In this document: positions 9,745-64,000 of the stretch, in pieces | Layout: every line of letters begins with the position of its first letter | How positions within the stretch are numbered: the first letter of the stretch is position 1 | Origin: Nemertoderma westbladi | Lineage: Eukaryota > Animalia > Xenacoelomorpha | Length of the DNA: 64,000 bases | Direction of reading: 5' to 3' | Assembly: GCA_032718475.1 (NCBI GenBank) | Contig: JAUCBJ010001802.1 | Coordinates: 67,433-131,432 of the forward strand | Translations under genes and position numbers: made by a program | Notes under the pieces: model-generated | What the model was told of the DNA's origin: nothing | What the model saw: only the letters and a program-made list of their open reading frames with translations | The model's database searches: none

Positions 9745-9851
9745 CTAAAATTTAGGAAAAATAATGTACAACAGGCGCCTGTATATTAAAACATTATTAT
9801 TATTGTTGTATACAAAATAAGTTAATTGCGACACAAAGTATGGTTTGGAAT

Positions 9852-11555: not shown

Positions 11556-13942
11556 TGTAAAAGCTTTTGTGGGATATAACTGGCCCTTTTGCTTCGCAAT
11601 CCAGTTTCCCTCAATGCGCTCAAATACTCTAAAGAAAAACTCCCTAACTCAAATGATGCAAGCTACCGGCTGATTGGCTGATTTGCTGTACGTATGGCCT
11701 CTTTGTTCTGTTCGATCAACCAACCAGAGCAAGGTCAACCAAGCAGAGTGATTCATCCTGTGTGTTGGCTAAGGGCTGCAAAAATCCGAATAGTTCGGCA
11801 TTTAGACATTCGTGGAATCTGTGGAATATGGAACTCTGCCAATGAGAGCTTTTCCTCTTTGTGTTGAAAGCTTGCAACAGCTCACAGGGTTCAGTGTGTT
11901 GGTTTTCCTGATGCCATGAACATCAGCTATGGAATTATTCTGTTTTATTCCAACATTAGAACGGCTTTAATTATGAGAACACATAACTGTTACCGGTACG
12001 GTACGGTACGGTACGGTACGGTACGGTACGGTACGGTACGGTACGGTACGGTACGGTACGGTACGGTACGGTACGGTACGGTACGGTACGGTACGGTACG
12101 GTACGGTACGGTACGGTACGGTACGGTACGGTACGGTACGGTACGGTACGGTACGGTACGGTACGGTACGGTACGGTACGGTACGGTACGGTACGGTACG
12201 GTACGGTACGGTACGGTACGGTACGGTACGGTACGGTACGGTACGGTACGGTACGGTACGGTACGGTACGGTACGGTACGGTACGGTACGGTACGGTACG
12301 GTACGGTACGGTACGGTACGGTACGGTACGGTACGGTACGGTACGGTACGGTACGGTACGGTACGGTACGGTACGGTACGGTACGGTACGGTACGGTACG
12401 GTACGGTACGGTACGGTACGGTACGGTACGGTACGGTACGGTACGGTACGGTACGGTACGGTACGGTACGGTACGGTACGGTACGGTACGGTACGGTACG
12501 GTACGGTACGGTACGGTACGGTACGGTACGGTACGGTACGGTACGGTACGGTACGGTACGGTACGGTACGGTACGGTACGGTACGGTACGGTACGGTACG
12601 GTACGGTTCGGTACGGTACGGTACGGTACGGTACGGTACGGTACGGTACGGTACGGTACGGTACGGTACGGTACGGTACGGTACGGTACGGTACGGTACG
12701 GTACGGTACGGTACGGTACGGTACGGTAAGGTACGGTACGGTACGGTACGGTACGGTACGGTACGGTACGGTACGGTACGGTACGGTACGGTACGGTACG
12801 GTACGGTACGGTACGGTACGGTACGGTACGGTACGGTACGGTACGGTACGGTACGGTACGGTACGGTACGGTACGGTACGGTACGGTACGGTACGGTACG
12901 GTACGGTACGGTACGGTACGGTACGGTACGGTACGGTACGGTACGGTACGGTACGGTACGGTACGGTACGGTACGGTACGGTACGGTACGGTACGGTACG
13001 GTACGGTACGGTACGGTACGGTACGGTACGGTACGGTACGGTACGGTACGGTACGGTACGGTACGGTACGGTACGGTACGGTACGGTACGGTACGGTACG
13101 GTACGGTACGGTACGGTACGGTACGGTACGGTACGGTACGGTACGGTACGGTACGGTACGGTACGGTACGGTTCGGTACGGTACGGTACGGTACGGTACG
13201 GTACGGTTCGGTACGGTACGGTACGGTACGGTACGGTACGGTACCTACTGCTGTATTGCACATTATTTACTGCTATTTACTGTTTGTTATTAATTGTATC
13301 AGTTGTTTACATATTGTTATTTGGAGAATAACGATAAATGATCAGAAACCCTGATCTTCTTGATACACTAAGGTTAGAGAGACCGGTTACATATAGCAAT
13401 TGCGACTTATATTATCGTGGTTTGTAGTGAATTGAATGCTATTTTATAGGCCCTACAAATGTCGGTTGCTATTCTCTTTATATATGATTAAAATCAGTGA
13501 CTATCGGCAATTCAGTGTGCAGCGGTGTGCAATAGTCTGTATGTGCTTGTCCGCGTAACAAAGCATCTCCTAAAGAATGCGCCTTATGTGTAACTTATAA
13601 TCCATTCCGTTGTGTTTAGTGTAAGCCATAGCTCTGTTTATATAGATAGAGCGCCACGTCCTAAAGGAACTGCTAATATTTCCCGAAAGTGAATGATATT
13701 TGTCAGGAATTATATTAACGATCAATCGAATAGTACGGTAGGCCTGCACCGCAATCAAATTAAAGCATCCGAATCCAGTCTCCCGGGTATATCCAGCGGG
13801 TGAATGGTCGCGCATAGACTGGCTTCGGCTAATGTTGGATTTATTTGTGTCAAATACTTGTCATAGGCTAAAGTCGATTTATAACCTAGAAGACATATAG
13901 ATTTGGCGGGTTAAACTGCCAAAGGTCTTAAAAGCGCGAACA
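11556..13942 (+). repeat. 5' LTR of element A (2387 bp, enlarged by microsatellite)
   Basis: Matches 22929-24093 except for roughly ten small differences and the GTACG array. Confidence 0.95.
11994..13244. repeat. (GTACG)n pentanucleotide microsatellite, ~250 units
   Basis: Near-perfect array with four single-base interruptions. Confidence 0.99.
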
Positions 13943-13953
13943 GTAACAGTTAT
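13943..13953 (+). promoter_or_regulatory. Non-tRNA primer-binding site of element A, complementary to its own LTR
   Basis: GTAACAGTTAT is the exact reverse complement of ATAACTGTTAC at 11983-11993 (and 23359-23369). Confidence 0.75.
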
Positions 13954-14292
13954 TAATTCTGATTGCAGTGTAGGCAATAAATACAGTTTACTATTGTTCT
14001 GGTAAGAACAATAACAGTTATTGCTTCTTTATTGCCGTAAGCAATAAAGCTGAAGTACCGGTCGACCGGTAACCTGTAGGCCTAACTACCTAACCACCGG
14101 AACCGGTACTTACAGCAGTATACTGGTATAGGTACATCAGTATTATTTCGATTGTGATATATTGTATATTGTAGGCTGTTAGGGGATTAGGGATTGATCA
14201 CCCCTTATTCCTTTGCATGGTTTACTTATTTCTGTCAGTTTTATTTACTAGTAGGCTAATATTGAGCAGAAGACGTGTAAGCCTGCTCAGAT

Positions 14293-14866
14293 CGTACAGA
14301 TAATTTGTAGGCTGGGCTGTTGTCTGACTGTTGATAGGTCTGAACGGATTGCAGTGCATGTAGAGTGTATGTCCGATAAAGTGCCGGTTAGGAACGTAGG
14401 GGCAGCTAGAGCTGTAAGGTAACCCCCCCCCCCCCCCCCCCGAAAGAATAAGTCGTACTACTAGGTTAGAACGCATACTAACTAACCATTTCGGAGTCTG
14501 CATGTCCTGTAGTTTATTTAGGCTTGATAGTAGTCTGCCAGCGTTTGGTCTGTACTTTGTTTGTGTAGTCTGTACAGGTACCGTAATATTTCTTATTCAG
14601 ATAATTTATAGGCTAGATTGTTGTCTGGCTGTTGTTAGGTCTGAAGAGATTGTGGTGTGTGTAGAGTGTATGTCCGATAAAGTGCCGGTTAGGAAAGTAG
14701 GGGCATCTAGAGCTGTAAGGTAAATCCCCCCCCGAAAGAATAAGTCGTACTACTCGGTTAGAACGCATACTAACTAACCATTTCGGAGTCTGCACATACT
14801 GTAGTTTATTTAGGCTTGATAGTAGTCTGCCAGCGTTTGGTTTGTATTTTGTTTGAGTAGTTTGTA
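14293..14866 (+). ncRNA. Two tandem ~290-nt rod-like structured RNA domains in the leader of element A
   Basis: Arms pair over ~65 bp with many G-U pairs; compensatory changes versus the element B copies. Confidence 0.65.
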
Positions 14867-16223
14867 CGGGTAGCGTAATATTTATTATTCAGAGTTTATG
14901 CGATTATTCGCAACATTCATAACCCCAAGTTTATTCCCACAGTAATTGTGCTTGTTATACATACCGTTATAGTTAAATTAACCCCGGTACTACATAAGGG
15001 CTGCTTGGCGTAGGTAAAGACTGGTGATTTTGTGCCCCGGTCACTCCAGCAGATGCCGTGGTTCCTTTAGCTGTACAAGTATTTCTAACTGCTAGTTATT
15101 TGTTGTACAAGTACTTGTACCTAATTTAGGGTTTAGTGTACAGTGCTTTCCGAAGGTAATTAGTGTGTAGGCAGTATATTTGTGTTGTAAAGTGGTTAAT
15201 AGGCATGTTGGCTCTGGTAGGCCGCGGTAATTAACTTCCAGGTAGGGACACTCCGTGATACATAACGTAGTACTTATAGCGATACGGCTATAAGTCGTCA
15301 GACGGTGGTATTTTTCCTATCTGGACAACGCAATATATTTACTACTGGTTTATTATTTTCAAATACCGTAATATCCTGTCTGTTGTAATAACCAGATTTT
15401 CTAACCCTTTGTTAGGCTGTTTTGTAGATTCCCTGTAAAATTACCCTAAAAATTCATATTTGTAATTTTTGTGTTTATTTAGAGATGGTAATCTCACCCC
15501 GAATTGTACGTAATTTGTAGTATTAAGTAACTTAGGTAAATTAGAATTATTTGTTTTAGTGTCCAACAAGTAGCACTTCACTGAGAGCGCACAGCTTCTG
15601 TGTAGTGACTCCTCCCCAGAAATAATAACATTTATTTCAAATATTGACAAAACCCATTAAAACGGGTATATATATTATAAATCAACTCAAACGATTTATA
15701 AATAGTAGGCCTGCCATACAACAACTAGGTCTCAATATCAGTTGGACTACTGCTCAAATAACGGTAATAAAGTAAGTTAAAGTAACCAAGTAACCCCTAA
15801 AATTCAGAAATACAATTATTCTAAAATAATTGACATACCGGTATTTACAATAGGCTTATTATATTTATTTCTATAAATTTAGGCTGCAATTATACCGGTA
15901 TTCTGTAATTAATTCTAGTTCATAATTATACTTATATATACTATAAGTGTAAGCTGTATACCGGTATTCACGATAGGCCTATTATATATTTATATATATT
16001 TGTGCTAAAATTATATACCGGTATTCTGTGACAAACATAGTCTGTAATAATACTTATATATATATATACTATAAGTATACCGGTATTCTGATACATTGTA
16101 TATATATCACGTTACACTGAGTAACGGTATCGGTAATTAATTACTAGGCTAACAGTTGATACTGAATTACTAGACTTTCTTTAACTGTAATATAGCAGTA
16201 GGCATTCAACTGTACAATCAAAT

Positions 16224-18559
16224 ATGTCTGGCACAAAACGGGCACTGTCAGATAGTCTTTTGGAAGGTGTTAGAATGAGTCTTCGACTTGGACAGCGTCT
16301 TGAAAGGATGGAAGACAGAAAAGCAGCAGCAGTGGCAGCGGCAGAAGCGGAAAGAAAAGCGGCAGAGGCGGTGGCAGAAGCAGAACGGAAGGCGTCTGAA
16401 GCGACTGCCCAACTAGAGCTGGAGAGCCTTCGGGCGAGACAGGGATTTGCCTCCTCCGATGAAGGTGATATAAGAGATCCCGAAAGTAGAGGTAATAAAT
16501 CTCGTTCAAGCAGGCGTAGAAGAATGCCACACTGTCCGAAGTTACCTAATTTGCCTCCTGCGGTGAGACTAGCTAGCACAGACTTAGGTAGTACAGAACC
16601 CACAGACCAAATTATTACAGTAGAAAGACTCCCTACTATAGTAGATGAGCCTGAAATAATTAGGCCTGTTCTCGAAGCCACCCCTTCGGTGATAGAGACA
16701 CCTGTACTCCCAGGACCTACCTCTAAATTCCCTTTGCACAGCACAAAACTACCTGTGCCCAGTAGGACTGTTCCCGAGTCCGAACCCATCCTGGACGCCG
16801 AGCGAGATATCAAGAATTTATCGCCCGTCGTCTCTCGCTTGCCCGCTACTACGTTGGCGACTCCCGCTTCGGCGGTCGAGTGGGTAGCTGAGGGACGACG
16901 GGAGATGGGTCTCCTGCTCGGGCAGCTGAGGGAACATTGTAAATGTTCCTCCCAGCAGGTCCGGGAGTTGGAAGGGACTGTTCAGCAGTTAAAGGGAGCA
17001 GTAAGAGAGGGTAGGTTAGCATTGCAAGAAGTGCAGCAGAATATCGCGTCAGAATGCGATAAGTTAGTAAATTTACAAAAGGGTATACCACCACCCTCTG
17101 TAACAATGTGTCAACCTGTTAGGTCTGAAGTATTTCATGCGCAAGGTGTGGAGCCTACACGCATATATACTGCTAGTGAAGTAGAAACTCCTATAGTAAA
17201 CCCTATTAAGGGTAATTATAAACCTGTTGACAGTGATATTCCATATAGACTTGATAATAATCCGAGAAATTTATATACCGATAACTCGATATTAAATAAT
17301 ACGATGGCCCAAGAAAGTTTTACGCGTCAAATGGCTAGAACCGAAGCCCGTCAAGCGGTAAAGATGGGAGAGATCGTCAAGTTCAATGGAGATGAGATGA
17401 AATGGTTACCTTTTAATGAATATTACAAAGATAACATACAGAACTCTGTGTTATCTAACGGAGAAAAGCTTAGATTCCTCATCGAGTGCTTGGAAGGATC
17501 TCCCAAGTTAATGGCGTTAAAGTTTATTGGACATCCAGATGGATTAAGACAAGTTTGGGATACATTAAACATCAGGTATGGTAATAGGAATAACATAGCT
17601 AGGTATTTGTATGCAAAATTAATGGCGCCCCGAAAGTTTCTTAGCAGCGGGATAATAGAGTTTTCCGATGAGATTCAAGAGATCTGTAGACAATTAGATT
17701 GGTTAGGTAAGTCTCGTGAATACCAGAATTCTATGGTTGTAGGAGCCTTAGCATCAACTCTGCCAAAGGGTGGAGTAGGTACACGCTGGGACAAGAAAGT
17801 GTTATATATGATGGAACAACAACGACGAGACCCTACCATGGCTGATCTCATGTCATTCTTGGATGGAGAGGTAAAATTACAGCTCCTAAAGCAGTCCCGA
17901 GAGAAGACCCTGGAGAACAAGGTGAGTGAAAAACCCGTTTCTAGGAGAAAAATAATACCAGTGTGTTATACCGACGAGGGCGAAAGCCAGGCTTCTCAAG
18001 AAGAAGACAGCGGGAAAGACACTGAAAGATCTTACTATGACAATAAAACCCTAAAGGACGTAAGTAAATTCAAGTCTCGAACCAATGACAGGAGAGAACA
18101 GGTAAGAAAAACTCCTCCTACGTCTCCTAAGAGAATTAATGTAAGAAATCCCGAGGAAAGAACGAGCGTGCACCACACAGCACATGTTAAAGTAAGTAAC
18201 ATCAAGCCCAAATGTGTGTTGTGCGACGGGCCCACCGTTTAAATGTGTGTAATGAATTCCTAAAGAAATCATTAAAGGATAAACGTGAAGTCATGTGGGA
18301 TAAGCGGTTGTGTTATAATTGTCTCAGACGAGGACACCAACGGCGAACCTGTTACTCCGACGCAAGGTGTGCGAAGTGCGGCGCGAAACATCATATTTTG
18401 TTGCACACCGAATTCGAAAGAAACAGCCCGAGTCAGGTAAGTGAGTCCGAACTACATGTCCAATTCAGTGATGTGAACGACACTGACCAAAGTTCTGAGA
18501 TGGAAGGATTCTATACTATACGGACGAATTCTCAGACGAAAACGAATCCTGTTACTTAA
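16224..18559 (+). pseudogene. Bel/Pao gag of element A (frameshift near 18230)
   Basis: Coiled-coil N-terminus; KFNGDEMKWLPF..LSNGEKLRFLIECLEG (DUF1759-like); CVLCDG-AHRLNVC, CYNCLRRGHQRRTC, CAKCGAKHHILLH knuckles. Confidence 0.9.
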
Positions 18560-18570
18560 TAAATACCGCA

Positions 18571-19648
18571 GTGTATCGAGCACTTACGTATGAGAAGGAA
18601 ACCGACAGTGAGCTCCCCCTAACTACTTCTGATCGACAACCATCTTGGAAAGCGCCAACTTCCAATGTAGGAATCCGAGAATTTCCTGTAGTACAGTTAA
18701 GGGTCCACGGACCTAAAAGGAGTTATATAGTGAACGCCCTCCTTGACTCCGGTAGCACAGGAACATTCATCGACAAAGAACTAGCCGAAGACATCTTTGC
18801 TGGACAACCCAAGTTCCGAACTAAGCTAAACATGTCAGGAATTATGCAGGTTTGGAAATCTACCGTAATAGCGGATTATTATGTAGGCGCGTTGTCCACC
18901 CCCCAGGATGAACTAGGAGAACACAGCATAAGGTCAGTAAAAATGGTAAAAATGGTAGCACTTGGCTACCAGCCAAGTGGAACCTTATAACTGGGATGAG
19001 GACGATTTCACCCAGCAGCTTGAAATACCTAGATTCAACACCGATTACCCTGGAGTCCAAATACTAATCGGTCAAAATGCGCATGAAGCGCTCGAGACAT
19101 TGGAGAAACGGCCTGCTCAACCGCAACCACTACAAGCCTATGCGGGAAGAACTAGAGTGGGTTGGTACTTTACTGGCCCTTCCCGTAGAACTCTCATGGA
19201 AAGATTACCGAAAGATCAGGTATATCAAGTAAGAGAATGGGAAGATGAGAGCAGTGAGTTAGACGATCCAACTAAGGGAAGACCATACTCCTCAGATAAT
19301 GACGACATCAACTCCAATGTAGATCAATGGAGACATTGCCCCGAGACGATTAATCTAGCCGACATTGCCTCCAGTGGAGCAACTCCTCAAGAACTGACAG
19401 ATACTCCAGACTGGTTAGGTGAACCCGACTTCCTAAGTAAAGAAGATGAATGGCCTCCCCACCTTAACCCGGCTGAGATTAGACAGGCCAAGGGAGCAGA
19501 GAAAGTAACACAACCACTCAATCGCCCAGCTGGTCGTTTATGTTTACTGGAAAGAGACCGAAAACTGTCCGGAAACTATGGAAGGCAAGATACTCTTCCC
19601 ACGATCACCTCCCTAATCCAACAAATATCTAGGGACTCCATAACGTAA
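18571..19648 (+). pseudogene. Pao aspartic protease plus fused remnants of the pol C-terminus
   Basis: VNALLDSGSTGTFI; ILIGQN..RTRVGWYFTGP; QWRHCPETINLADIASSG..WLGEPDFL (end of RNase H region); RPAGRLCLLE (integrase tail); no RT or DDE core between them. Confidence 0.85.
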
Positions 19649-21305
19649 CAACATACGGAGTGGGTGTGTGACTATATTATTTTATATTTATTTTATTATT
19701 TTATATTATGTATGTATTATTATGTAATTTTATTATAATCGTTTTCTTTAATTTTATTTAGTCAAATGTTATTTAGCGATTATTTAGTAGATTAGTGCAA
19801 TATATTAGTGTTTATTACTTAATTACTTATATATTATATTTAGTGCGACGGCGAGAAATAATTCTTTTTCTCTTTCCTTACTGTCCGTATCATATTATAA
19901 ATACAATATTATTTTTTATTATTATATATACAATATAAATAAATATAAAATTATGTAAGATGAAATATCCGTACTTATTAAAGTACAATAAAGCTCCTAC
20001 TATATTCAAGTATTATTGGTAGGCAGAGTATTAGGAATGCAAAGTTCAGATCCTCGTGTCTCGGCTAAACCAAGCTCTGGGTAGACCTTGGAAACGACTT
20101 GCCTCTTCTCACTGACATTGCTTCGTGCGATATTGCTCTCATACCGTATATTGAATAATACATATAGTAGCGTGATGTCCCTTTAACAGTAGCGTAAAAC
20201 GCAAAATAAATCTGTTAAACCCTTTGACCATCTGCAATTCTAGTCGATTAAGATATCGCGGCACCCACCGATATACTTGAAAGACAAAATTCTAGAATCA
20301 GTGGTTAACGTCCCCAGACAAGTTCTGGAATAAACTGGTGCCCATCCTAAATATTAATTATTAATATTTACAAAATCTGTCAAATTTCAGATCCTTTAAA
20401 ATTCTAGTCGATTAAGATATCGTAGCACTTACCGATACTCTTAAAAGGACAAATCCCTAGAATCAAGGATCCCAGTCCCCAGACTTGTTCTGGAATAAAA
20501 TTGTGTCTATTTAATATTAAATAATAAAATTACGGGAATAAATTTAAATTCATCTTTTAATGAATTTGATAAATTGTTATTTTATACAATTTATAATATT
20601 CCCAAAATTCCATTAATTAATAGATCATGGGAGCGGAGATTCACCTATTAAGTGTATTAGTGTGCGAGAATCTCCAATATAGAGTCAATAGCCGATAAAA
20701 TTCATAAAATCATATATAAAGATGATATTGACCATTAAAGACTTACTATTAAATAGCATCCCAGATCTGTATGCATGGGAATTACCCTAATTCTACCGCT
20801 AGCTTTCCATAATGTCACCATAGCAACAACCACGCTAGAATTAGAAGCGAGTTAACAGAACAATAAAAAGCTTGCTCATTGAATAGCATACGGAATAAAT
20901 AACACACCGCTAGTATCCAAGGATACATAATAACAACGTGACATTCTGGAAGGCACTTGACTAACGGACAAATGACCCGAATGTGTGATAGAATGTGTAC
21001 CATTTGTGACAGTTACGTGGAATTTGTGCGTTTGTAGATGAATGTTACTACTAAGGTGTGTTTACAGTAGCGAGTCGCAATTGTGAAAGTAGCCCTAACT
21101 CTCCAGTAAGAACCTGAAGTATATCTAAGCCTTTGGGACGGACGGTGGAGTGACTCGTGCTGGTTGTTGTAGTCGTTGTGCAGCTACGACGTTGGCGATA
21201 GGCACATCGGCGAAAGTACACCAGCGCTGAGGATCTCGCACTGTCCGGGGGCAGAGAGGGGTAGGCAGCGACGCCCGCTCGCCTAAATATAAACTCATTA
21301 TAATA

Positions 21306-22850
21306 TGGATAAACTTATATAGCAGATATGATTGAGTTGATAGAAGATGATCTTGGTATCAGGGAGCGATATACTCTACCTTTACAAGCGTTTGTTGATA
21401 GCTTGATACGCGGCGACGCTGGTCCAACTACTACGGAGGACGATGGTCGTTATATCGAACCGCCAATGTCCCAGGAACAACTTACGCGTGAATTGGACTA
21501 TAGAAAATTCACCGCTCGCTATACGCATCGTAATGGTACGTATATGGACTTCTTAACTACTGGTCATCCTATCGACCTACACGATACGAACGATATAGAC
21601 ACCGAAAGGGAAATGGTTTTATTTAAATATCATACCCAGCGGAAGCGGAACGATAAACTGAGATTCGAACACGAAAATTCTATTCGAAACCGACTCGAAA
21701 GTGAAGATGTTGAAGAGCCGGATAAACGCAGCGACTTCAACAGAATATCTGGAATTCTTGAGAGAAACATATCTCAATATTACCAGTCAACAGAATCTAG
21801 AAACTCGATATCTTCAAGGTATACATCATGACCGCATGGTAGAACTCAAACGGCTCTATTCCACTATGATGTATCTTACCGCTGATCGACCGCTACCTGT
21901 TGCACCGGATAGCTTCGAACAGATGGAGGAATATTGTAAACTGGAGAAAGATCACTCGCGTTTCCCCTACAAGACGTGCGTCTTTGGTATTATTGCGATG
22001 AATGCCCTAGACCCAACCAACAAACGGAAAGACCTAAACATCCGCGGAGACGTTGCATTAAACACGGTTTTACTCGCTATATTTACGGGAGTTTCGAGCG
22101 AAACTTGTTCGATGTATCACCTACGCTCGCTCGATTCAAACGATCCTTAAATAAACCTATGATCCGAGTTCCGGAATACTCGATCAGACCTCCTCACTCC
22201 CTAGTGAGAACCCAGACTCTTGATCCTAATAGTATCATGGATCCTCCCGAGCTGTACTCACTGTTCAAAGATCTAGTGCTACCCGAACAGTTAGTCGGTG
22301 GCACTCTGATTGTGGGCTCCCTAAATATTCGCCCATCTTACCTAGTCGGATTGGGACGCGGACATCTAATATCGTCATTCAACCGTATCATCGTCCCTGT
22401 TTAACCCGATACAACCTGTCACTGAGGCGGAGGAGAGAGTTGTACGAGACGCGTTGGACACTATTCGTCAAAAGATCGGAAAATGAACCTACAATTGTTT
22501 AGAGAAACGTAAATTGCGGCAGCAAGTCCAAGCGGTAAACGAATTAACTTTATCTCAGTTCGATCAAGAAATCCAGAATCTCTAAGAAGATATCGAACTT
22601 GGACGACCCTATTCTCTGCGAGAGTTTTTGGATGAACGTATCCAGCTACGAGCGGAGGAAAATCAGCTCGAGGAGAACATATCGAAACGGCGGATACCCC
22701 GACCATAATCCTACACCTTCTGATGCAATCATATTGCACCCTTCACCCAGGAGTTATAGCCCTCCTAGTAAAGTGGCTCCCCCCAAAGAGAAAAGGACTC
22801 TTGCTAGCTTTAAAAAACTGCGTAAACGCCGTCCACGCAAGAAAGACTAA
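21306..22850 (+). pseudogene. Decayed ~500-aa accessory ORF of unknown function inside element A
   Basis: Overlapping + ORFs 21328-21831, 21701-22150, 21976-22404, then a coiled-coil-like frame with two stops and a basic C-terminus (KKLRKRRPRKKD). Confidence 0.55.
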
Positions 22851-22928
22851 CTGTTTAGAGTATTTTTATATTTTAGAAACTGTGATTTTTTATATTTTAT
22901 AGAATTAAATCCCATTTTCTGGGAGCGG

Positions 22929-24093
22929 TGTAAAAGCTTTTGTGGGATATAACTGGCCCTTTTGCTTCGCAATCCAGTTTCCCTCAATGCGCTCAAATAC
23001 TCTAAAGAAAAACTCCCTAACTCAAATGATGCAAGCTACCGGCTGATTGGCTGATTTGCTGTACGTATGGCCTCTTTGTTCTGTTCGATCAACCAACCAG
23101 AGCAAGGTCAACCAAGCAGAGTGATTCATCCTGTGTGTTGGCTAAGGGCTGCAAAAATCCGAATAGTTCGGCATTTAGACATTCGTGGAATCTGTGGAAT
23201 ATGGAACTCTGCCAATGAGAGCTTTTCCTCTTTGTGTTGAAAGCTACCTGCAACAGCTCACAGGGTTCAGTGTGTTGGTTTTCCTGATGCCATGAACATC
23301 GGCTATGGAATTATTCTGTTTTATTCCAACATTAGAACGGCTTTAATTATAAGAACACATAACTGTTACCGGCACGGTACGGTACGGTACGGTACCTACT
23401 GCTGTATGGCACATTATTTACTGCTATTTACTGTTTGTTATTAATTGTATCAGTTGTTTACATATTGTTATTTGGAGAATAACGATAAACGATCAGAAAC
23501 CCCGATCTTCTTGATACACTAAGGTTAGAGAGACCGGTTACATATAGCAATTGCGACTTATATTATCGTGGTTTGTAGTGAATTGAATGCTATTTTATAG
23601 GCCCTACAAATGTCGGTTGCTATTCTCTTTATATATGATTAAAATCAGTGACTATCGGCAATTCAGTGTGCAGCGGTGTGCAATAGTCTGTATGTGCTTG
23701 TCCGCGTAACAAAGCATCTCCTAAAGAATGCGCCTTATGTGTAACTTATAATCCATTCCGTTGTGTTTAGTGTAAGCCATAGCTCTGTTTATGTAGATAG
23801 AGCGCCACGTCCTAAAGGAACTGCTAATATTTCCCGAAAGTGAATGATATTTGTCAGGAATTATATTAACGATCAATCGAATAGTACGGTAGGCCTGCAC
23901 CGCAATCAAATTAAAGCATCCGAATCCAGTCTCCCGGGTATATCCAGCGGGTGAATGGTCGCGCATAGACTGGCTTCGGCTAATGTTGGATTTATTTGTG
24001 TCAAATACTTGTCATAGGCTAAAGTCGATTTATAACCTAGAAGACATATAGATTTGGCGGGTTAAACTGCCAAAGGTCTTAAAGGCGCGAACA
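22929..24093 (+). repeat. 3' LTR of element A (1165 bp)
   Basis: TGTAAAAGC..GCGCGAACA followed by TSD AACAG. Confidence 0.95.
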
Positions 24094-34510: not shown

Positions 34511-35199
34511 AGTTATAAGGTTTTACCCGGCCGTTTAACTTTGTCCGATATGATCAATGTGGACTTTGTTCAAAATTGCTTGCGCTGTAATATTCCTTTT
34601 CCCAGCAAAGTCAAACGCATCCAGGAATTCCTCTATCAATCACGCATGGTGTAATCTGCATCATCATTTTTATGTCTCTGATTTTTAACTTACTCCCCAA
34701 TGGTGATCCCACCCCTCACATCATATTTTATGGTGGTGCACTTTGTTTACAGTTGCACTTAATGACCAACCCTTAGACAATGTTTTATATGTGTTGTGAA
34801 TTTTACTACCATATGCCATATGTATGTCCAGAAGTAAGCCTTCTATTCCATTGGTGCCATTGGATTTTATCTCTGTAATTTTAATTTGCCGGCGATGACC
34901 GGATTATTAATAATAATAATAATATTTACATACTTGTGTGTAAAGTAGCACTTTACAGTGTGATGATCCGAGTGGCTTTGTTACACGAACGAACGTTAGT
35001 GAGTGAGTGAAAATAAAGCCACGAGGATCAGAACACTTTAAAGTACTTTGCAACAAGTATGTATGTAGTTTTATTCCAAAATTTTAACATTACGAAGTGA
35101 TTGTACATATATTATAAGTGATAGGAACTGCACAAATTAAATTAGTTGCTGTAGAAATAAATGTAAAAAATGACATAAATAATAAGTTATAAATAAGTT

Positions 35200-38100
35200 T
35201 GTTAGCGTATTCAATTCCGCTAACCAGGCCCACACAAAGTTGGTATTAGGCAATATTGGGAGTACAAGGTTGATTACCAATCAACCTTGTATCACCCCAA
35301 TAAGCGGGGCGACAAACCCCAAAGGGCCTCAGACAATAGAGGTTAGAGGTCAAGGAGAGAGAGTAACAGCAGCGGGGGGGGGGGAAACACTCCCACAAAG
35401 TTCAGGGCGAGAATTAGGTTACTAGCCAATGGGGGGACAGCAGGGCATCAGCTGAGTAACACGGCCAACCTAGAGTATATTACCGGTTGATGTTTAGTTT
35501 AGTTAGTCAGTTATCTCAGTACAGTCACGGCAGTACGGTGACAGTTTAAGACCGTCACCGCCGTCAGCAATACATATTATTCCTGTATTACCGGTCAATC
35601 GTGCTATCTGCTATCATCCAGTCACCTATATTATATATCTCAGTACAAGATTCAGGAACACAAACTATTACATTTTCCATCACACAGTGCGGCTGACGCG
35701 TACATAAACAACACCGGATAAACCGGGATCCTCGGATCCCGTCACAGTCTTAAACTATAGGAACTGCCTGACAGACTGTGGCTGCCAGCCACCAGAGACA
35801 AAGATGAGCCAAGAGAGAGAGACGACACCGCCGCGGACCCTGGACGACAACCTAACGATCCGCGAGGCCACGGCGAGACAGTATCGACCCACGAGGCCGG
35901 ATTCGTCGACGACGAACGATCCGGCAATCCAAACGGAAGGGGGCCGTCTACAACGAGGAGGGAGAGACGAGTCGAGAGAAGGGAGAGACGAGTCGACGCA
36001 CGACGGCGGTCGACATGCCAATGTCGCCGGCCAGCCACAGGCCGAGGGTGACGGATGGCCCACCGGAACGGCGACGGTGGGGCCGCCGGTACGACGCCGG
36101 ACCCGGAGAGAGAGAGGAGATGTCGGCGACGAGGACGTCGGGGTCAGAGACCGGCTCCGACGAGCCTACGCCGCGACCCGGGAGCAACTGAGAGAAGCTA
36201 GAGGAGGGGCCAAGATAGACCAGGTGAAGTTAGGAAAGCGGCTAGGTGAGTCGAATAAACATTTTGATTGCTCTGGTGCGCTTTGGGCAGGGAGAACTAG
36301 CCGATGAGAGAGCGAGTGGGGTTGCCACCGAACTGTTTGAACTGTGGGAACCTAGGGGTATGGGGCCTGGTGTAGTGTACATAGGGCCATACTTAGTTGA
36401 TGCCAGGGGAGTTAAGTTAGTGGGTTGGGCGGGACCGCACGAGGGCGAATCCGAGGTTAACTCCGAGGATTCGGTCCCGTCGGTCAGCGAGAACCCCGGA
36501 AAGCGGGGGAAAGTTAGTAGGACGGAGGGGCGACGGGAGTCCGTCGCAACCGATAAGTCTGCTACATCCTCCGCAAAAGAAAGAAGGGTGTTAGAAAATA
36601 AATCTGGCGTGTCAGCGTAAAGAGCGTGAGGCGAGAAGGGCGAGCGAGTGTAAAGAGCGCGAGGCGAGGTGGCTTGAGAGGGTTGCGAGAGAGACAGAGT
36701 TGGCCGAGCAAAGTCTGCGAGGAGGATGGAGAGAGAGAAACGTTTGCTAATACCCCACTTACAGGGACCGGACGACAGACCCAAGACTGGTGTAACCGTA
36801 CGGGCGGGGGGGGGGGGGGGGGGGGGTAATAACAATAGATTAGAGAACGTTAATATTAATAGTACCGTAGTAAATAACCCTAATACCTTTATTACAGGAA
36901 ATATATTTTACCCGGTGATTTAAATACAAATAATCTCAAATAATAATTTAAATCCAAATAATTCGAATAATAATTTAAATTTAGAAAATAATAATAATTC
37001 TAATTTAAATAATTTAAATAATAATATTGATAACGGGGCTATTAATACTAATGTAGACACAGATGGTCCGCCAACGGTAGCCTGCAAGGCAACGTAGTTA
37101 GTAGGCAGGGAGTGGCGGGGTTGAGTCAACCCGAGGTGGGCCTGGTAGGCCACGCAGTAGTAGAGAGAGAGGCGGGGGTGAATAGACCCAGCCGCAGTAG
37201 AGACAGTGCGTCGACTAGAGAGGGGTGTAGAAGTGAAGTAAGAGATAGTGAAGTAAGATGTGGCGAGTGGGGGGGGGGGGGGGGGGCTACGGGCGCCCCA
37301 CCACGAGAGATTAGTAGCGAGTGGGGTCGAACTTCGGGGGATTGCCGTCGCCCCGGAGAAACGCACTGCACGCCAGGAGAGCGGTACAGGATGTACCAAT
37401 ACGAAGACGAGAGCAGGATAGGGGATCGAAGAGAAACTTCCCGACGGGATGTAGCTGCCGATCGAGAGTACGGTAGTCGCGGGGAGATTCGAGATTCGAG
37501 AGAATTAAACTTCGGTTCGGAAGGGCACATGCAGACTGCAGGACATACTGTAGGCCTTACTGCACATACTATTATAGGCCATGCTGGGAGAGATAGAATA
37601 GGCGATAGGGTAGCGCCGACGACGGGATTAAACCCGGAAGTCGCGGAGTACATACCGGTAGGTAGGCAAGAAGTGGGTAGGCCTATATCGGTACGGCAGC
37701 ATGACTATAATACACAGGGACATAACATAGACCCGGTTGAGGGGGATATTGCAGATAGATGGATGGGCCCCAATATATTAACATCAGCCCCAGTGCCGAA
37801 CATAACACCGGTGGGGGGGGGGGGGTGACAGGGTGACATTCCCCCATCTACAAAATATCCGCAGTATAAACAACCAAGAACAAACAAGTAGGGTGAGAAC
37901 GTAGGGAGAACAAGTAGGGTGAGCTAGAAGGGAGAAAGATGGGAGAGATGAGAAGGGTACAGGGGGTGCGTTAGAATAAGTAGGGCACGGGCGTGATGAC
38001 GTGTTTGATGTAAGAGCAGGGTATGTTAATTAGAGTTAGTGGGAGTTAGAGGTTAGTAAGAGGGAACGTAGTACCGGTTGTGGTTGTGGGCACCGCAAGC

Positions 38101-39855
38101 GCCACGTAGATGGAGGTAGTTGAGTTAGTAAGAGGGTACGTAGTACCGGTTGTGGTTGTGGGCACCGCAAGCGCCACGTAGATGGAGGTAGTTGAGTTAG
38201 TAAGAGGGTACGTAGTACCGGTTGTGGTTGTGGGCACCGCAAGCGCCACGTAGATGGAGGTAGTCGAGTTAGTAAGAGGGTATGTAGTACCGGTTAGTAA
38301 GAGTTAGTGGAGTTAGAGGTTAGTAAGAGGGTACGTAGTACCGGTTAGTAAGAGTTAGTGGGGTTAGAGGTTAGTAAGAGGGTACGTAGTACCAGTTAGT
38401 AAGAGTTAGTAGTAGTTCACATAATTAACATACCCATTTTGCCGGCACTCAGAGCGTCACGTGCAGGCAAGGAAACGTAAGGGGATAAGATTCAAAGGTA
38501 GGTGTAGAGGAGACAGGATGTAGATAGAGTAGAGGGAGTAGATGTAGAGAGTTGGCAGAGTAGAAGTAGTAGTAGAGTGGTTGTGGGCACCGTAAGCGTC
38601 ACGTAGATGGAGGTAGTAGGTAGTAGCAGAGAGTGGTTGTGGGCACCGCAAGCGCCACGTAGATAGAGGTGGTAGCAGAGTTAGAGGTAGTAGTAGAGTT
38701 AGAGAGTTAGAGGAGTTAGTAGGGGTAGTAAGAGGGTACGTAGTACCGATAGTTAGATGAGTTAGTAAGAGTAGTAAGAGGGTACGTAGTACCGTTAGTT
38801 AGAAAGTTAGTAGAGTTAGCAGAGGTAGAGAGTCAGTAGAGTTGGCAGAAGTAGAAAGTTAGATAGTTGGAGAGTTAGTAGAGGTAGAGAGTTAGTAGAA
38901 GTTAGAGAGTCAGTAGAGAGCTAGGGAGTTAGTAGAGCTACACCTCCAAACTACAGAAGGGCCTTCGGAGGTCTGGTAGACCACCCGGGGCTGGAGGGCG
39001 AGTCGGTGTAATACAACAGCCGGCATCTAGTAGACAGGGAGGTGGATACACATATCAGAGGTGGGAGAAGTCGGAAGCGAATAGACTTGGGTGTTGGGGA
39101 AACAAAAGTCGTGTGAGAGGAAGTCACGATCGGCCCGACACGGGACGCCAGAAAAACGGGGTAGCGATATCATACCCATAGGGAGCGGCCTGGAAAGCCG
39201 GCTCCGAAGAAAATAGTTCCACCCCACACCCGATAGTAGATCGGGATCCAGCGGAATTGTAGCGCACTAGAGGTGGATGCTATCTTCTCACCGGGAAGAT
39301 AGCATGGGGGGAGTGTTAGCATATTCAATTCCGCTAACCAGGCCCACACAAAGTTGGTATTAGGCAATATTGGGAGTACAAGGTTGATTACCAATCAACC
39401 TTGTATCACCCCAATAAGCGGGGCGACAAACCCCAAAGGGCCTCAGACAATAGAGGTTAGAGGTCAAGGAGAGAGAGTAACAGCAGCGGGGGGGAAACAC
39501 TCACACAAAGTTCAGGGCGAGAATTAGGTTACTAGCCAATGGGGGGACAGCAGGGCATCAGCTGAGTAACACGGCCAACCTAGAGTATATTACCGGTTGA
39601 TGTTTAGTTTAGTTAGTCAGTTATCTCAGTACAGTCACGGCAGTACGGTGACAGTTTAAGACCGTCACCGCCGTCACGAATACATATTATTACTGTATTA
39701 CCGGTCAATCGTGCTATCTGCTATCATCTGTCACCTATATTATATATCTCAGTACAAGATTCAGGAACACAAACTATTACATTTTCCATCACACGGTGCG
39801 GCTGATGCGTACATAAACAACACCGGATAAACCGGGATCCTCGGATCCCGTCACA
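35200..39855 (+). mobile_element. Non-autonomous LTR retroelement C (probably Bel/Pao-derived, no pol)
   Basis: TG..CA LTRs 35200-35746 and 39314-39855; TSD AAGTT; PPT GGGGGGAG; broken gag-like ORFs 35804-37828; purine-rich 72-bp repeats from 38052. Confidence 0.9.
35747..35756 (+). promoter_or_regulatory. Non-tRNA primer-binding site of element C, complementary to its own LTR
   Basis: GTCTTAAACT is the exact reverse complement of AGTTTAAGAC at 35543-35552. Confidence 0.7.
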
Positions 39856-40567
39856 AAGTTAACTTATATTTATGGTGGCGTTTGGAGCCATGTTAATAAT
39901 ATAGCTACATGTTACATGTTAATAATATAGCTACTGGTTATTAATAGCTATACCCCTCTTACCGGGAGGTAATACAGTAGGCCGATCTAGCTGTCAGGCA
40001 AATCTCCACCTATTGTTTACGTGGAAACCAATGACGGCGTTAAGTAATGTCCACTAAGGGGATATTACTTAACGGATACCGCCAAATACTACAGTAAATG
40101 TACAGGCCAATAAAATGCTGTAATGTCCTCTAAATTGTAAAGTGCTAAATAACAACTCGCTGTTACTGTAATACTAACGGCGTTGAGTAAAGTTACAATT
40201 TTGGAATAAAATGTTGTTACTCTTAACCAAACCATTTTTAAGAAAATTCGTTTCCCTGGTTACTTGCATGATAACTGGATTGTGATAGGCTCACTGCATC
40301 AGAACTGTTGTTTAAGAGTAGAAAACTGTTTGCCCTATACACAGTGCACACTTTCCTTTTTTCCGTAAAGGTGCGATTCACCATACAACAAACTGTATGT
40401 AGGCGTATTAATTGTTATTGTACTATAGGCCTACTGCCTTCACTGCCACAGCTTGTAGTATCGATTCATACTTTAAAAGTCACAGAGATGTAAACCAATG
40501 GTATTTGGAAGATATTCTAAATAATTAGTGGCCCTGCTTTCGTGAAAAAATGAGATTTGTAATAACT

Positions 40568-55545: not shown

Positions 55546-58500
55546 TTTGCTATTCTCATAAATTAGAAAACAGGAATATAATGTAGATTAATTTATTGTA
55601 TTTCTTATTAAAGTTTAATTGTGGTATTGCATTGTCCATTTATTCGTAACACATACAATAAGTATTAATCAACAAAGGCTTGGCTACACATTGTATATGT
55701 ATGGCACAACCGCCGTATCTACAGTATGATTTTCTTTTAGATTATATAACTAAATAAAATAAAATTATAAAATAAGTTTCGACAAAACAAATATGTTTCG
55801 CTATGGTTTATTTATCATGAGCTCTTTTTCTTAATTTCAAAATCAATAATTTATTTATTAAAGTAACAATTTACGTTCTGGAACAAATATAGATCTGAGT
55901 TCCCCAGATAAAGGACGAAATATTTGAAAAAGAAATCTTCCTCCGTTTCCTTGATTTTAATCCGATTAAGCTGAAATTTGGCATATAATCTATGTAGGCC
56001 TTACTAGAACTACTGTAGCTACTGTAGTGTTTTTTAACAAGCTAGTATTTTTGGCATTTAGTGTGGCTTGGGGCCCCATTTTTGGAAAATTTATGGCATC
56101 ATATTTTGTTGTTAATTTGAATGTACAGGTATAATATCAAGAAGACTTATTCTAGACCATTGTAAATACAAAAAAATACAAAAACATATATGTATATATA
56201 TGTTAAATATGTATGAAATAAATAAATATATAATGTATATACAATAATATATATATTAATATTTAATTATTATTATTATTATTTTTCATTATTTATATTT
56301 TTTCATTATTTATATTTTTTTATTATTTCTATGATATAATACTAAAAAACATATATGTAAATATATGTTAAATATGTATGAAATAAATAAATATATATTG
56401 TATATACAATAATATATATATTTATATTTAATTATTATTATTATTTTTATTTATTATTTATATTTTTTTATTATTTATATAATACAGTATAATACAAAAA
56501 CATATATCTATACACCATGTCCCGTAATATATTGTCATTTTCTGATGAAACGGACCCCCCCTAAGATTTTTCTACAAATCTTTATCATATTGCTTGAAAT
56601 TTGAAATACAACTAGTTCGACTCACCGTCGATGACCCCATGAAGCCGGAATGAATTTTCGATTTTGAAATTTCGTTTTAAAAAAGTGTCTTTTGCGAAAT
56701 CGCACCCTCTGTATCGTAACCATTCTCCACATTAGTCGTATTTTTGTCATATCATTAGAAAGCTTGCGTTGCAAGGATTCCAAATATGTAACAATATCTG
56801 AATTTCGTTGAGAAACAGCTGAGATATAAGCGTTCAAAGATCGCAAGAATTATTGTTCGCTGAAGGTCATTTATTCTATTAAATAAATACACGATGTTCT
56901 GGAACATTTTGTTTAAGTATGAATAGCTACGCAATAGAGATATTGGATAGAAATACCGCTGTTGCCAACCATCTTATAAAATAAACAACACATTCTAGAA
57001 TTTTGTGTATTTATTTAATATAATAATGGGGTAGACGACTCGGAAAATTTTTTTCGAGTTTTCGTTGGTTTCATGTGAAAGAGCATGTGAAAAAACCCCA
57101 GAGAGCAATTTTACTTCAAAAGAATTAATATTGGCTGAGTTATAGTGATTTTAAAACGCAAAATTAGCAACATCGAAAAATCAGGCCGTTTCAGAAAACT
57201 GCACTAGTGACGTCACTAGTGCAGCAGTAAATGTTCATTGGTTACTATACAATATAAATCTCTTAGTAACTAAAATAAATTGTGTAGCTAATATTTATTT
57301 AGTGTGTTTTTGTGTTGTGTTAAGAATACATTATTTGATATCTTAATGTGGAAATTGATTCATGACAAGTTAATTATTCCAGAATAATAATTATTTTTCC
57401 CAAACTATACAGTTGTTAGCTATAAAAATAAAACATATTTTGTAGCTAAAACTGCCAGGTGGTAGGAACCCAGTAGCTTATTGATGTTTTATTCAGCTTC
57501 AAAGCTTAGATTATGTAAAAGCTTTTGCGTAATTAGCCGGTTATTTTCCCTTAAAGTACTCTGTAGTTGGTTTGCCAGGCATAAAAAGGCCGTGTCCTTG
57601 CTGTACTGGTGTTTTAGAGGACATAAAAGTCATTTCTTATGTATTTGTACTGTATTTGTACTTTAGAGGACATAATCCACAATCTCGTGACGCAATAGCT
57701 GGATACTTTGAAACAGTGTCGCTACCATGACGACGGCTAGCAGCTGATATTGCCACGTCGACGTTTCTTTGTTTCTTTGTTCTCTCGTTGTTCAGGTTGA
57801 CCAATCAGAGCGTTTGTTGTCTCTGTGTTGGAGGTATATACAGAAACTCAGTAGTTCAGTGTTATGTTTTTGCCCAGAGCCTAAGAACCGGCTTTTGGCA
57901 CCTCCGTGTTTTCAGTTTTTAGTTTTACACTAGTAGGTTTAATTATAAGGACATATATCCTTTAACGCACCTGACTTTTAATCGCTGCTAACTGATCATA
58001 CATCCTGACTGCTGAAACATTGCAAACTCATAACAATCAGTGTTCAGTTGTTGTTTTATACTGCTATTTACTGTCAGTTCTTCATAATATGGTTGATGAA
58101 TTATTATATTGGAATAACGAGAAATAACCCCGAAAACCCAATATTCTTGATATACCGAAGGTAAGAGAGAAAGGTTACCAATAACGATTGTGACTTATGT
58201 TAAAGTGGTTTGAAGTGAATCTAATGTTATTTGATAGACCCTACATGAGTCAGTCTGTGTTCCTTTTATATGTGACTAAAATCAGTGAAGATTGGCAGAT
58301 TAGTGTGCAGTATTGTGCAGCATTGTGTATGAGTGAGTCTGTTAAAGAAGCAATTCCTAAAGAATGCGCCATATATGTGAATTATAATTAAGCCATATCG
58401 TTGTGAGTAGTTTAAGTCATAACTCTGTTTATATAGATAAAGCGCCACGTCCTAAAGGAACTGTTAATATTCCCCGAAGGTGAATAATATTGTCAGAGAT

Positions 58501-58724
58501 TATATAATACTGTCAGTCGAATAATACATTAGGCTTACATAGCAATAAAATTAAACCGTCGAACCCAATCTCCCGGGAATATCCAGCGGGTGAATGATCG
58601 CGCACAGATTGGTTTCGACTAGTGTAGTGAATCAAATATTTGTCATAGGCTAAAAAGCGATTTAATATCTAGAAGACATCCTAATTTGGCGGGTTAAACT
58701 GCCAAAGGTCTGAAAGCGCGAACA

Positions 58725-58736
58725 TTAAAGGATATA
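58725..58736 (+). promoter_or_regulatory. Non-tRNA primer-binding site of element B, complementary to its own LTR
   Basis: TTAAAGGATATA is the exact reverse complement of TATATCCTTTAA at 57954-57965. Confidence 0.75.
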
Positions 58737-59009
58737 GCTTCTTTATTGCGGTAAGCAATAAAGTTGAAAGTACCGGTCAACCGGTAAACCTGAACGGTCC
58801 ATCTGTAGGTCCGTAGGCCTAACTGTCCTAACCGGTACTTCCGTATAAGTACAGCAGTATTATTCGATTTGATTATATATGCCGGTAGGTCTTAATAATT
58901 AATCGGGGACGCCTGGTTTTTATTGGGATTTTTACTTAGGCCTATTTCTGTCAGTTTTATTTGTTTGTAGGCCAGTATTGAACAGAAGGCGTGTAAACCT
59001 GATCAGATT

Positions 59010-59568
59010 GTACAGACGATTTGTAGGCTGAGCTGTTGTCTGATTGCTGTTAAGTCCGAACGAATTGCAGTGTGTGTAGATCACCTGTCCGATTAAGTAC
59101 GGTTAGGAAGTAGGGGCAGCGAACGCTGTAAGGTAAACCCCCAACTAAAGAATAAGTCGCACTACTGGGTTAGAGCGCATACTCCCTAATCATTTCGGAG
59201 TCTGCATGTCCTGTAGTTTATTTAGGCTTGAGAGTAGTCTGCCATCGTTTAGTCTGTACTTTGTTTGTGTAAGTCTGTACGGGTAGCGTATAATATTTAT
59301 TTAGATAATTTTGAGGCTGGATAGTTGTCTGGCTGTTATTAGGTCTGAACGGATTGCAGCGTGTGTAGATCACTTGTCTGATTAAGTACGGTTAGGAAGT
59401 AGGGGCAGCGAACGCTGTAAGGTAAACCCCCAACAAAAGAATAAGTCGCACTACTGGGTTAGAGCGCATACTCCCTAATCATTTCGGAGTCTGCATATAC
59501 CGTAGTTTGTTTAGGCTTGATAGTAGTCTGTCAGTGTTCGGTCTGTATTTTGTTTGAGTAGTTTGTAC
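59010..59568 (+). ncRNA. Two tandem rod-like structured RNA domains in the leader of element B
   Basis: Same fold as 14293-14866 with compensatory substitutions. Confidence 0.65.
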
Positions 59569-60900
59569 GCGTAGCGTAATATTTATTATTCAGAGTTTAT
59601 GCGATTATCCGCAACATTCATTCCCCAAGTTTGTTCCTACAGTAATTGTGTTTGTTATACATACCGCTATAGTTAAATTAACCCCGGTACTACACGGGCT
59701 GCTCGGCGTAGGTAAAGACTGGTGATTTTGTGCATCGGTCACTCCAGCAGATGCCGTGGTTCTTTTAGCTGTTCAAGTATATTTAACTACTGATTATCTG
59801 TTGTACAAGTACTCGTACCTAATTTAGGGTTTAGTGTACAGTACTTTCCGAAGTAATTAGTGTAGGCATTATATTGGTGTTGTAAAGTGGTTGATAGGCA
59901 CATTCGATTAGCTCTATTAACTTCTAGGTAGGAACACTCCGTGATACATAACGTAGAACCTATAGCGATACGGCTATAGGTCGTCAGGCGGTGGTATTTT
60001 CCTATCTGGACAACGCAGTGTATTTACTACTACTTATTATTTCAAATACCGTAGTACCCTGTCCGTTGTAATAACCAGAATTCTAACCCTTTGTTAGGCT
60101 GGTTTGTAGACTTCTTGTAAAAATACCCTAAAAATTTCGTATTTTGTGTTTTTGTAAATTTTTGTGTTTATTTAGAGATTGTAATCTCACCCGAATTGTA
60201 CGTAATTTGTAGTATTAAGTAACTTAGGTAAATTAGAATCATTTGTTTTAGTGTCCTGTACGTAACACTTCACTGAAAGCGTACCGCTTTGTGTAGTGAT
60301 TACCCCAGAAATAATAACATTTATTTCAAAAATTGACTAAACCCATTAAAACGGGTATATATATATTATAAATCAAATCTAACGATTTATAAATAGTAAG
60401 CCTACCATATAACAATTAGGTCTCAATATCAGTTGGACTACTGCTTAAATAACGGTAATAAAGTAAGTTAAAGTAACCAAGTAACCCTAAAGTTCAGAAA
60501 TTCAATTATTCTAAAATAATTGATATACCGGTATTTACGATAGGCCTATTATCTTTATTTCTGTAAATTTTAGGCTTCCATTATACCGGTACTTGTAATT
60601 AATTCTAGTTCAGAATTATATATCCTACAAACTGTAAGCTGTATACCGGTATTCCAGATAGGCCTATTATATATTTATATATATTTGTGCTAAAATTATA
60701 CCGGTATTCGGTGATAAAACTAGTCTGTAATAATAGTTATCTATACTATAAGTATACCGGTATTCTAATATATTATATATATATCACGCTACACTGAGTA
60801 GCAGTACCGGTAATTAATTACTAGGCTAGCAGTTAATACTGAGTTACTAGACTTACTCAGACTGTAATACAGCAGTAGACATTCAACGGTATACATAGTC

Positions 60901-63900: not shown

Positions 63901-64000
63901 AGCGCCCCGAAAGTTTATTAGTAGCGGAATTATTGAGTTTTCCGATGAGATCCAGGAGATCTGCAGACAATTAGACTGGCTAGGTAAGTCTCATGAGTAT
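60901..64000 (+). pseudogene. Bel/Pao gag of element B, interrupted by a MITE
   Basis: Open for ~816 codons up to the MITE; resumes LSNGEKLRYLIECLEG after 63728; near-identical to the A gag core. Confidence 0.9.
63350..63725. mobile_element. PIF/Harbinger-like MITE inserted in gag B
   Basis: TIR GGGGCCGTCCAAGTATGACGTC(A/T)GCACTTT; 3-bp TSD TAT; empty site visible in element A at ~17450. Confidence 0.88.

Follow-up and report, generated by a model that had tools for sequence, protein, structure and literature searches.

The self-priming of reverse transcription was first demonstrated for Tf1 in S. pombe and has since been implicated in elements from fungi to vertebrates, as the accessible text of PMC4600332 relates. 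In Tf1 the primer is the 5' terminus of the RNA and lies in a pretzel of three duplexes, whose side duplexes are built from LTR sequence downstream of the primer (accessible parts of PMC10085805 and PMC5341516), and self-priming has also been predicted for plant Tcn1 and for the TAR lineage of Ty1/copia (Houba, Osr-1), according to the available portion of PMC6317226. BEL/Pao elements are described as animal-only (PMC3601003, available portion). Our literature search retrieved no account of self-priming in BEL/Pao or of a hairpin-gated internal primer, with subscription papers, Repbase reports and supplements, which may hold BEL/Pao PBS annotations, lying mostly outside that search; a term search found neither PBS nor tRNA in the main text of two BEL/Pao papers (PMC554778, PMC3118150), and the accessible parts of PMC8220671, PMC10680173 and PMC5443660 held nothing further for comparison.

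The element that we compare with these systems, element C, lies in a 64-kb stretch of DNA from Nemertoderma westbladi, the whole of which is called the window below. Its anatomy is the following.

35195..35199, + strand, 5' target-site duplication AAGTT, a single copy in a paralogous empty site near 40802
35200..35746, + strand, 5' LTR of C (TGTTAG...CGTCACA, 547 nt), aligned with the 3' LTR
35804..37828, + strand, low-complexity reading frames, broken, with no recognised domain and no pol
39306..39313, + strand, polypurine tract GGGGGGAG of C
39314..39855, + strand, 3' LTR of C, with the hairpin intact at 39646-39670 and the anti-PBS copy at 39653-39662
39856..39860, + strand, 3' target-site duplication AAGTT

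C is thus a 4.66-kb LTR element with a 5-bp target-site duplication and without pol; two direct LTRs, TG..CA termini, the duplication and a polypurine tract mark it as an LTR retrotransposon. The empty site near 40802, with its single AAGTT, confirms the ends of the element, and the eight substitutions that separate the two LTRs over 542 aligned positions indicate a young insertion. The absence of pol, which the earlier note had already proposed, was borne out: no family reached the Pfam cut-off in the frames of C (the search covered 23 frames plus five frames of C, one of them overlapping, out of 40 listed frames of at least 45 aa), none of 150 BEL-type proteins matched C, and by these two comparisons RT, RNase H and integrase are absent, as are a DUF1759 Gag and a Pao-type pol. 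A word-based protein search with one frame of C gave no match, and a protein atlas returned for the first frame a single weak lead (0.75, hypothetical). One frame contains LNPEVAEYIP (within 37630-37665), which has no Pfam match and which we take to resemble the PAM2 poly(A)-binding-protein motif. At the nucleotide level, the LTR of C matched neither of the LTRs of the neighbouring elements A and B (blastn, word 7, E<=10), as the same note had claimed, and against 80 BEL/Pao loci it gave only one weak match of 40 nt (E 0.005). Exact patterns of the U5 end and of the hairpin retrieved no stretch from metagenomes and from viral contigs, respectively. ARAGORN found no tRNA gene in the 64-kb window, and Rfam gave no match over 35100-40000.

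The features on which the question of priming turns are situated at the two sides of the LTR end.

35536..35542, + strand, hairpin 5' arm CGGTGAC, free of substitutions that reach 4% among other copies
35543..35552, + strand, anti-PBS in the hairpin loop, predicted 3' tip of a self-primer
35554..35560, + strand, hairpin 3' arm GTCACCG
35724..35741, + strand, U5 hairpin of 7 bp with a 4-nt loop (folding), putative analogue of the U5-IR stem
35747..35756, + strand, PBS GTCTTAAACT, 10 nt, non-TGG, abutting the LTR end

The PBS GTCTTAAACT begins right after the last letter of the 5' LTR (..CGTCACA, 35746), lacks the TGG start that would complement the CCA end of a tRNA, and is over its whole length the exact reverse complement of 35543-35552; no extension of this match into the LTR is possible. 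Among 20,000 dinucleotide-shuffled LTRs of C, the match arose in 14 at offset 0 and in 97 at any offset from 0 to 4. The anti-PBS sits in the 11-nt loop of a 7-bp hairpin that is present in both LTRs, and perfect 7-bp hairpins with a loop of 10-14 nt occur at 0.1 per shuffled LTR (400 shuffles). Both the 10/10 match and its location in the loop of CGGTGAC/GTCACCG had been read from the sequence beforehand, and both stand. The claim that the LTR ends in a perfect hairpin with a TC loop holds for the palindrome (35725-35740) and fails for the loop, since a 2-nt loop cannot close; the sequence folds instead into a 7-bp stem closed by a 4-nt loop, with 5 nt of the LTR remaining 3' of it. The stem-loop that encloses the anti-PBS is peculiar to C, A and B having no equivalent 7-bp stem at that place.

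A second helix joins the leader to the LTR just upstream of this hairpin.

35426 (CCAAT), 35476 (TATATT, TATA-like) and 35494-35521 (initiator-like YAGT cluster), + strand, promoter-like motifs from a motif scan
35524..35534, + strand, upstream strand GTCA-C-GGCAGT of the second helix, predicted 5' part of the primer, best leader duplex site in the whole LTR
35763..35772, + strand, leader strand ACTGCC-TGAC of the second helix

The leader 3' of the PBS pairs best with 35512-35535, at -21.2 kcal/mol against -16.7 for the next peak in the LTR, and the core of this duplex is a 10-bp helix between 35524-35534 and 35763-35772. Chance produced such a helix in 107 of 5,000 shuffles, and in 5 of 1,000 when a 22-nt window was used. 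Because the helix is positioned upstream of the hairpin, the primer probably reaches upstream of the hairpin as well, unlike the 5'-terminal primer of Tf1, and the arrangement fits a primer in which 30 nt or more precede the 3' end. The CCAAT, TATA-like and initiator-like motifs, which we take as such by general consensus, predict a transcription start that probably falls at about 35500-35510, near 35505.

Folding models add a structural side to this picture. With a modelled start at 35505, the closed hairpin is preferred, at -71.3 kcal/mol for the free fold versus -69.5 with the fold-back forced, a difference of 1.8. The probability that anti-PBS and PBS pair stays at or below 0.13 for starts from 35340 to 35538 and is 0.07 even after a modelled cut, so that the fold-back state is never preferred while upstream sequence is present. 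When the 5' arm is absent (start 35543), the probability rises to 0.59 with a 3' end at 35810 and is 0.11 and 0.00 with the other two 3' ends. The models thus show a hairpin that masks the primer rather than presenting it, but they cannot fix the start: folding leans toward 35543, though not robustly, and the promoter-like motifs and the second helix speak for a start farther upstream. In element B the fold-back forms at 0.93-0.99 from starts at 57930-57955 and at 0 from 57858 and 57900.

The window holds two further elements whose comparison with C is informative.

11556..24093, + strand, element A, BEL/Pao gag and protease without RT; its PBS at 13943-13953 complements 11983-11993
57514..64000, + strand, element B, a relative of A cut by the window end; its PBS at 58725-58736 complements 57954-57965

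The Gag of A carries DUF1759 and so, by similarity to A, does that of B. Word-based protein searches with A's Gag gave no match; 214 representatives match it at E<=0.001, and among the 17 that were checked DUF1759 was found in all and a Pao peptidase domain in nine. BEL proteins align to A only over about 16900-19700, i.e., Gag, zinc knuckles and protease, from which it follows that A is non-autonomous too; the earlier note was therefore mistaken in contrasting a pol-less C with A, which likewise lacks RT, RNase H and integrase. In their place, A has at 21300-22850 an additional disrupted reading frame that could be assigned to no kind. Over 683 nt, the LTRs of A and B show 77% likeness. The two PBSs differ in letters, and either one is complementary to the homologous place within the LTR of the same element, over 11/11 nt in A (4 of 20,000 shuffles) and 12/12 nt in B (6 of 20,000). 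Perfect matches at a homologous position with different letters constitute, in our opinion, the strongest evidence for self-priming. The proposal that A, B and C have an alike fold-back PBS was upheld in the sense that, for each of three different PBSs, the LTR of the same element holds a match at offset 0. The second helices of A and B are weak (173, 583 and 37 of 1,000 shuffles). A splice model was also considered for these two elements and rejected, the split matches (10 and 8 nt) being shorter than the contiguous ones.

Several peculiarities of this neighbourhood may be recorded here. The leader of A (13938-14050) contains a diverged tandem copy of the unit formed by LTR end, PBS and hairpin, with the same 11 PBS letters in both copies (13944 and 14012), and of the two it is the second that has the stronger pairing with the sequence 5' of the anti-PBS (37 of 1,000). 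Directly 3' of the anti-PBS of A, a (GGTAC)n satellite of about 1.25 kb (11995-13245) is expanded in the 5' LTR only, the 3' LTR having about five units. The anti-PBS of B (57955-57963) reads as what we take for a minor-spliceosome 5' splice site, that of A does not, and the likeness is presumably due to chance. An insertion of about 380 bp (63348-63727) interrupts gag in B, RT fragments of probably non-LTR origin occupy 9765-11335, and a piece of a Mutator-like transposase is located at 52401-52988 on the minus strand.

Autonomous BEL/Pao elements of other hosts were then compared: 80 loci (L001-L080) were fetched with an alignment of three full-length sequences that are 26-29% identical to A's Gag, and viral contigs yielded no BEL relative.

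L001, L009, L012, L014, L015, L016, L024, L035, L041, L043, L046, L048 and L058, autonomous BEL/Pao loci in which the PBS pairs only with the spliced junction of the element's own LTR intron

Seven loci have an LTR end that could be defined; in none of them does the PBS start with TGG, and in six the junction of the canonical LTR intron matches the PBS over 10-15 nt (0-5 of 200 shuffles); the seventh, L046, gave 0 in this junction test and 10 nt in an unbiased scan. That scan, from which 33 loci with less than 800 nt upstream of the match were excluded, found junction matches of at least 10 nt in 12 of 47 loci versus 0 of 47 reverse-strand controls, the 12 representing about eight distinct junctions and many of the misses being truncated contigs. 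A corresponding unbiased scan for contiguous matches in the BEL/Pao relatives did not rise above its control. The PBS pairs with the splice junction 4-7 nt into exon 2, which means that the primer ends internally. After removal of three near-duplicates, the leader paired more strongly with the upstream exon than with the intron end in nine of nine loci, reaching p<=0.05 in four of nine as opposed to none of nine, in a comparison whose control is made lenient by T-rich introns. The intron-bearing BEL/Pao elements thus have a spliced primer and keep the intron in both LTRs, and their primers, like that of C, end within the RNA, often with a second upstream helix. The comparison of sequences linked none of these loci to C.

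Other copies of C were sought in DNA contigs of four runs (three samples at most), whose summed depth is not equivalent to copy number and whose depth profile, excluding contigs less than 80% alike, is biased toward conservation. The depth over 35535-35564 amounts to 8,100-9,100 (X1) as against 55-250 over the neighbouring R sequence (35585-35654), which indicates that the hairpin module is common to far more LTR variants than the adjacent sequence. Among the variants listed, no substitution at 4% or more falls in 35515-35566 or in the U5 stem, and in two independent DNA runs the hairpin module has indels in its loop only, where 21% (X1) and 32% (X3) of the depth lack 1 nt of the T run of the anti-PBS. 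A 2-nt insertion at the edge of the U5 stem-loop accounts for about 28%. Just 3' of the PBS the depth falls to 360 (35757, X1), about 4% of the hairpin depth, and no PBS variant matching the 1-nt-shorter anti-PBS was discerned against the large depth of the LTR end. At the U5 end (35712-35745) the depth exceeds that of the anti-PBS hairpin about fivefold, hence many LTRs carry the end of C without its hairpin, and such LTRs may include the helper family. In the U3 of C, a perfect inverted repeat of about 12 bp over a CCAAT box is found at 35264-35290; it lies in a stretch of very high depth (36,000-64,000 in X1), common to a wider LTR family than the priming hairpin.

That three elements have three different PBSs, each matching its own LTR, and that BEL/Pao PBSs pair with RNA derived from their LTRs, together give good support to self-priming, and we consider it very probable, judging from the sequences, that C primes its own reverse transcription in some form. 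To the narrower proposition, that C is primed by a two-part fragment from within the 5' region of its RNA in the present layout, we give about even chances. In its favour are the match at the LTR edge, the rank of the second helix among the LTR sites, the small cost of the fold-back, the constancy of the hairpin module in the depth data and the internal primer ends of the autonomous BEL/Pao loci. Against it count the folding preference for the closed hairpin, a start predicted from consensus motifs, the shorter anti-PBS for which no matching PBS was discerned, the low depth just 3' of the PBS, the missing hairpin and weak second helices of A and B, and comparison loci that sequence does not tie to C. 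The start of transcription would precede 35524 and probably fall near 35505. Until a switch takes place, the hairpin would hide the tip of the primer while the second helix keeps the 5' end beside the PBS; the Gag/NC of a helper would then flip the RNA of C to the fold-back form, whose stability in the model is lower by only 1.8 kcal/mol. A helper RNase H or a host nuclease might then cut after C35552, leaving a primer of 30-50 nt with its 3' end facing the LTR edge. If so, the RNA of C should include a fragment with its 5' end upstream of 35524 and its 3' end at 35552. A poly(A) site was tried as the source of that end and rejected, there being no signal 10-30 nt upstream (the candidates stand at 35569, 35703 and 35717). 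Strong-stop DNA would be extended as far as 35553 before its transfer to the 3' LTR, the source of everything upstream, and copying of the primer tip during plus-strand synthesis would, by analogy with retroviruses, rewrite the PBS in every cycle. Such rewriting from the primer would explain how A and B have perfect matches with different letters; primer copying has been described in retroviruses, whereas Ty1 and Ty3 inherit their PBS (PMC7472051, available text).

The rival that survives best is a plain Tf1-type arrangement, in which transcription starts at A35543, the first 10 nt of the RNA are the primer and the hairpin, confined to the RNA's 3' LTR copy, would mask the second anti-PBS there while the second helix joins the RNA 3' end to the leader and aids strand transfer. 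Position 35543 is indeed the A of an initiator-like CAGTT, and the matches of A and B, at 11-12 nt, come close to the short primer of Tf1. The modelled pairing peaks without the 5' arm, at 0.59 with the 3' end at 35810, but this value is fragile, as the 0.11 and 0.00 from the other two 3' ends attest; the CCAAT and TATA-like motifs would sit at -117 and -67, the fold-back of B forms (0.93-0.99) with the start as much as 25 nt farther upstream, and BEL/Pao primers reach upstream of the core match. On balance we regard this arrangement as unlikely.

A primer made by splicing is less probable again. It would use 35543-35544 as an AG acceptor with a donor at 35342 or 35349, so that the 5' arm is removed and a 13-14-nt junction primer results, the very design of autonomous BEL/Pao elements. 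The contiguous match of C ends exactly at this AG, a donor context occurs in 342 of 20,000 shuffles, and the leader departs from the complement of the junction only at 35757 and 35760, where other copies carry the junction-matching letters in 71-100% of the depth in three runs. Nevertheless, the LTR of C has no GT(A/G)AG donor, its acceptor has 7 of 18 pyrimidines and five nearer AGs as compared with 11-15 and 0-3 in the relatives (with the L009 row read 2 nt off), and it is with the end of the supposed intron that the leader pairs (5 of 1,000), not with the supposed exon 1 (916 and 571 of 1,000).

Slightly behind this comes a primer that would be cut at 39662 out of the 3' LTR (39653-39662), either of the RNA being copied or of another RNA packaged with it. 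Hairpin, anti-PBS and upstream strand are identical in that copy, which makes the two copies indistinguishable by sequence, but the spliced primer of BEL/Pao elements with introns in both LTRs is more simply accounted for by priming from the 5' side and a 3' template left unspliced, and we hold this source to be improbable. Least probable of all is priming by a host RNA (a half-tRNA or another small RNA) with the LTR match as chance or relic: half-tRNA PBSs without TGG do exist (PMC6317226, PMC5445492, accessible text), but three different PBSs match their own LTRs at offset 0, in 14, 4 and 6 of 20,000 shuffles.

Returning to the internal, two-part primer, it is tempting to generalise, and we do so tentatively, leaning somewhat against rather than for the idea, that unrelated animal LTR elements share a non-Tf1 form of self-priming, with an internal two-part primer from the 5' RNA that a helper or host nuclease has to cut out. 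Access to the primer tip would be controlled in C by a hairpin able to switch and in autonomous BEL/Pao elements by splicing, and pol-less elements would exploit the design at high copy number. The loop of C may even mimic an anticodon arm, which in half-tRNA primers has a 7-nt loop and is cut at the first 3' base of the stem. The earlier note had gone further, in taking the mechanism to be common to distant families; self-priming is well supported, and the sharing across distant families is not shown for C, since none of its proteins could be assigned and the searches brought up no helper. If the proposal is true, tRNA-free priming in animals would not be bound to the Tf1 layout, and an internal primer would imply an unknown cutting step together with a structural gate on reverse transcription. 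C might moreover escape tRNA-fragment silencing at the PBS, and the many invertebrate LTR elements that are annotated without a PBS would find an explanation along with a rule for finding them. C itself is well suited to testing, being small and of high copy number and having only one 3' end predicted for its primer RNA (35552).

As regards known systems, Tf1, Tf2, Tj1, Tosmo and Tf1/sushi elements (Ty3/gypsy chromoviruses) are like C in having an LTR-adjacent PBS that complements their own LTR RNA and no tRNA site, and the Tf1/sushi group shares a U5 stem-loop beside the PBS and the cut required to free the primer (accessible parts of PMC4600332, PMC10085805 and PMC5341516). They differ in that the flanking duplexes of Tf1, in those same parts, lie downstream of the primer, whereas the strongest extra helix of C lies upstream of the tip; set against the pretzel, C has a duplex of only 2+2 bp before the PBS, and its best leader partner is upstream of the primer. 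The primer tip of C is, furthermore, in a hairpin loop, and C has neither pol nor chromodomain. The TAR copia elements Houba and Osr-1, and Tcn1, are comparable in that self-priming was predicted from PBS-LTR complementarity outside the yeast elements, but they are autonomous plant elements for which the available text describes no masking hairpin (PMC6317226). The fungal GalEa elements, with their Conserved Hairpin Site, and bivalve TRIMs resemble C in the lack of a tRNA PBS and in conserved hairpins near the LTR end (PMC5445492, PMC6934838, available text); unlike that of C, the GalEa/TRIM hairpin lies 3' of the LTR, and for GalEa the authors, in that text, found no LTR complement. With BEL/Pao elements (A, B and L001-L080), C has in common the 5-bp target-site duplication, TG..ACA ends, a G-rich polypurine tract, a non-TGG PBS pairing with LTR-derived RNA and, often, a second upstream helix, but no detectable sequence is shared, and the autonomous loci use a spliced junction where A, B and C have a contiguous match. 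C probably works like a Tf1-type self-primer but can be placed in neither Tf1/sushi nor BEL/Pao; self-priming itself has already been published for Tf1/sushi, and what is new here is the second helix and a primer that probably reaches upstream of the hairpin.
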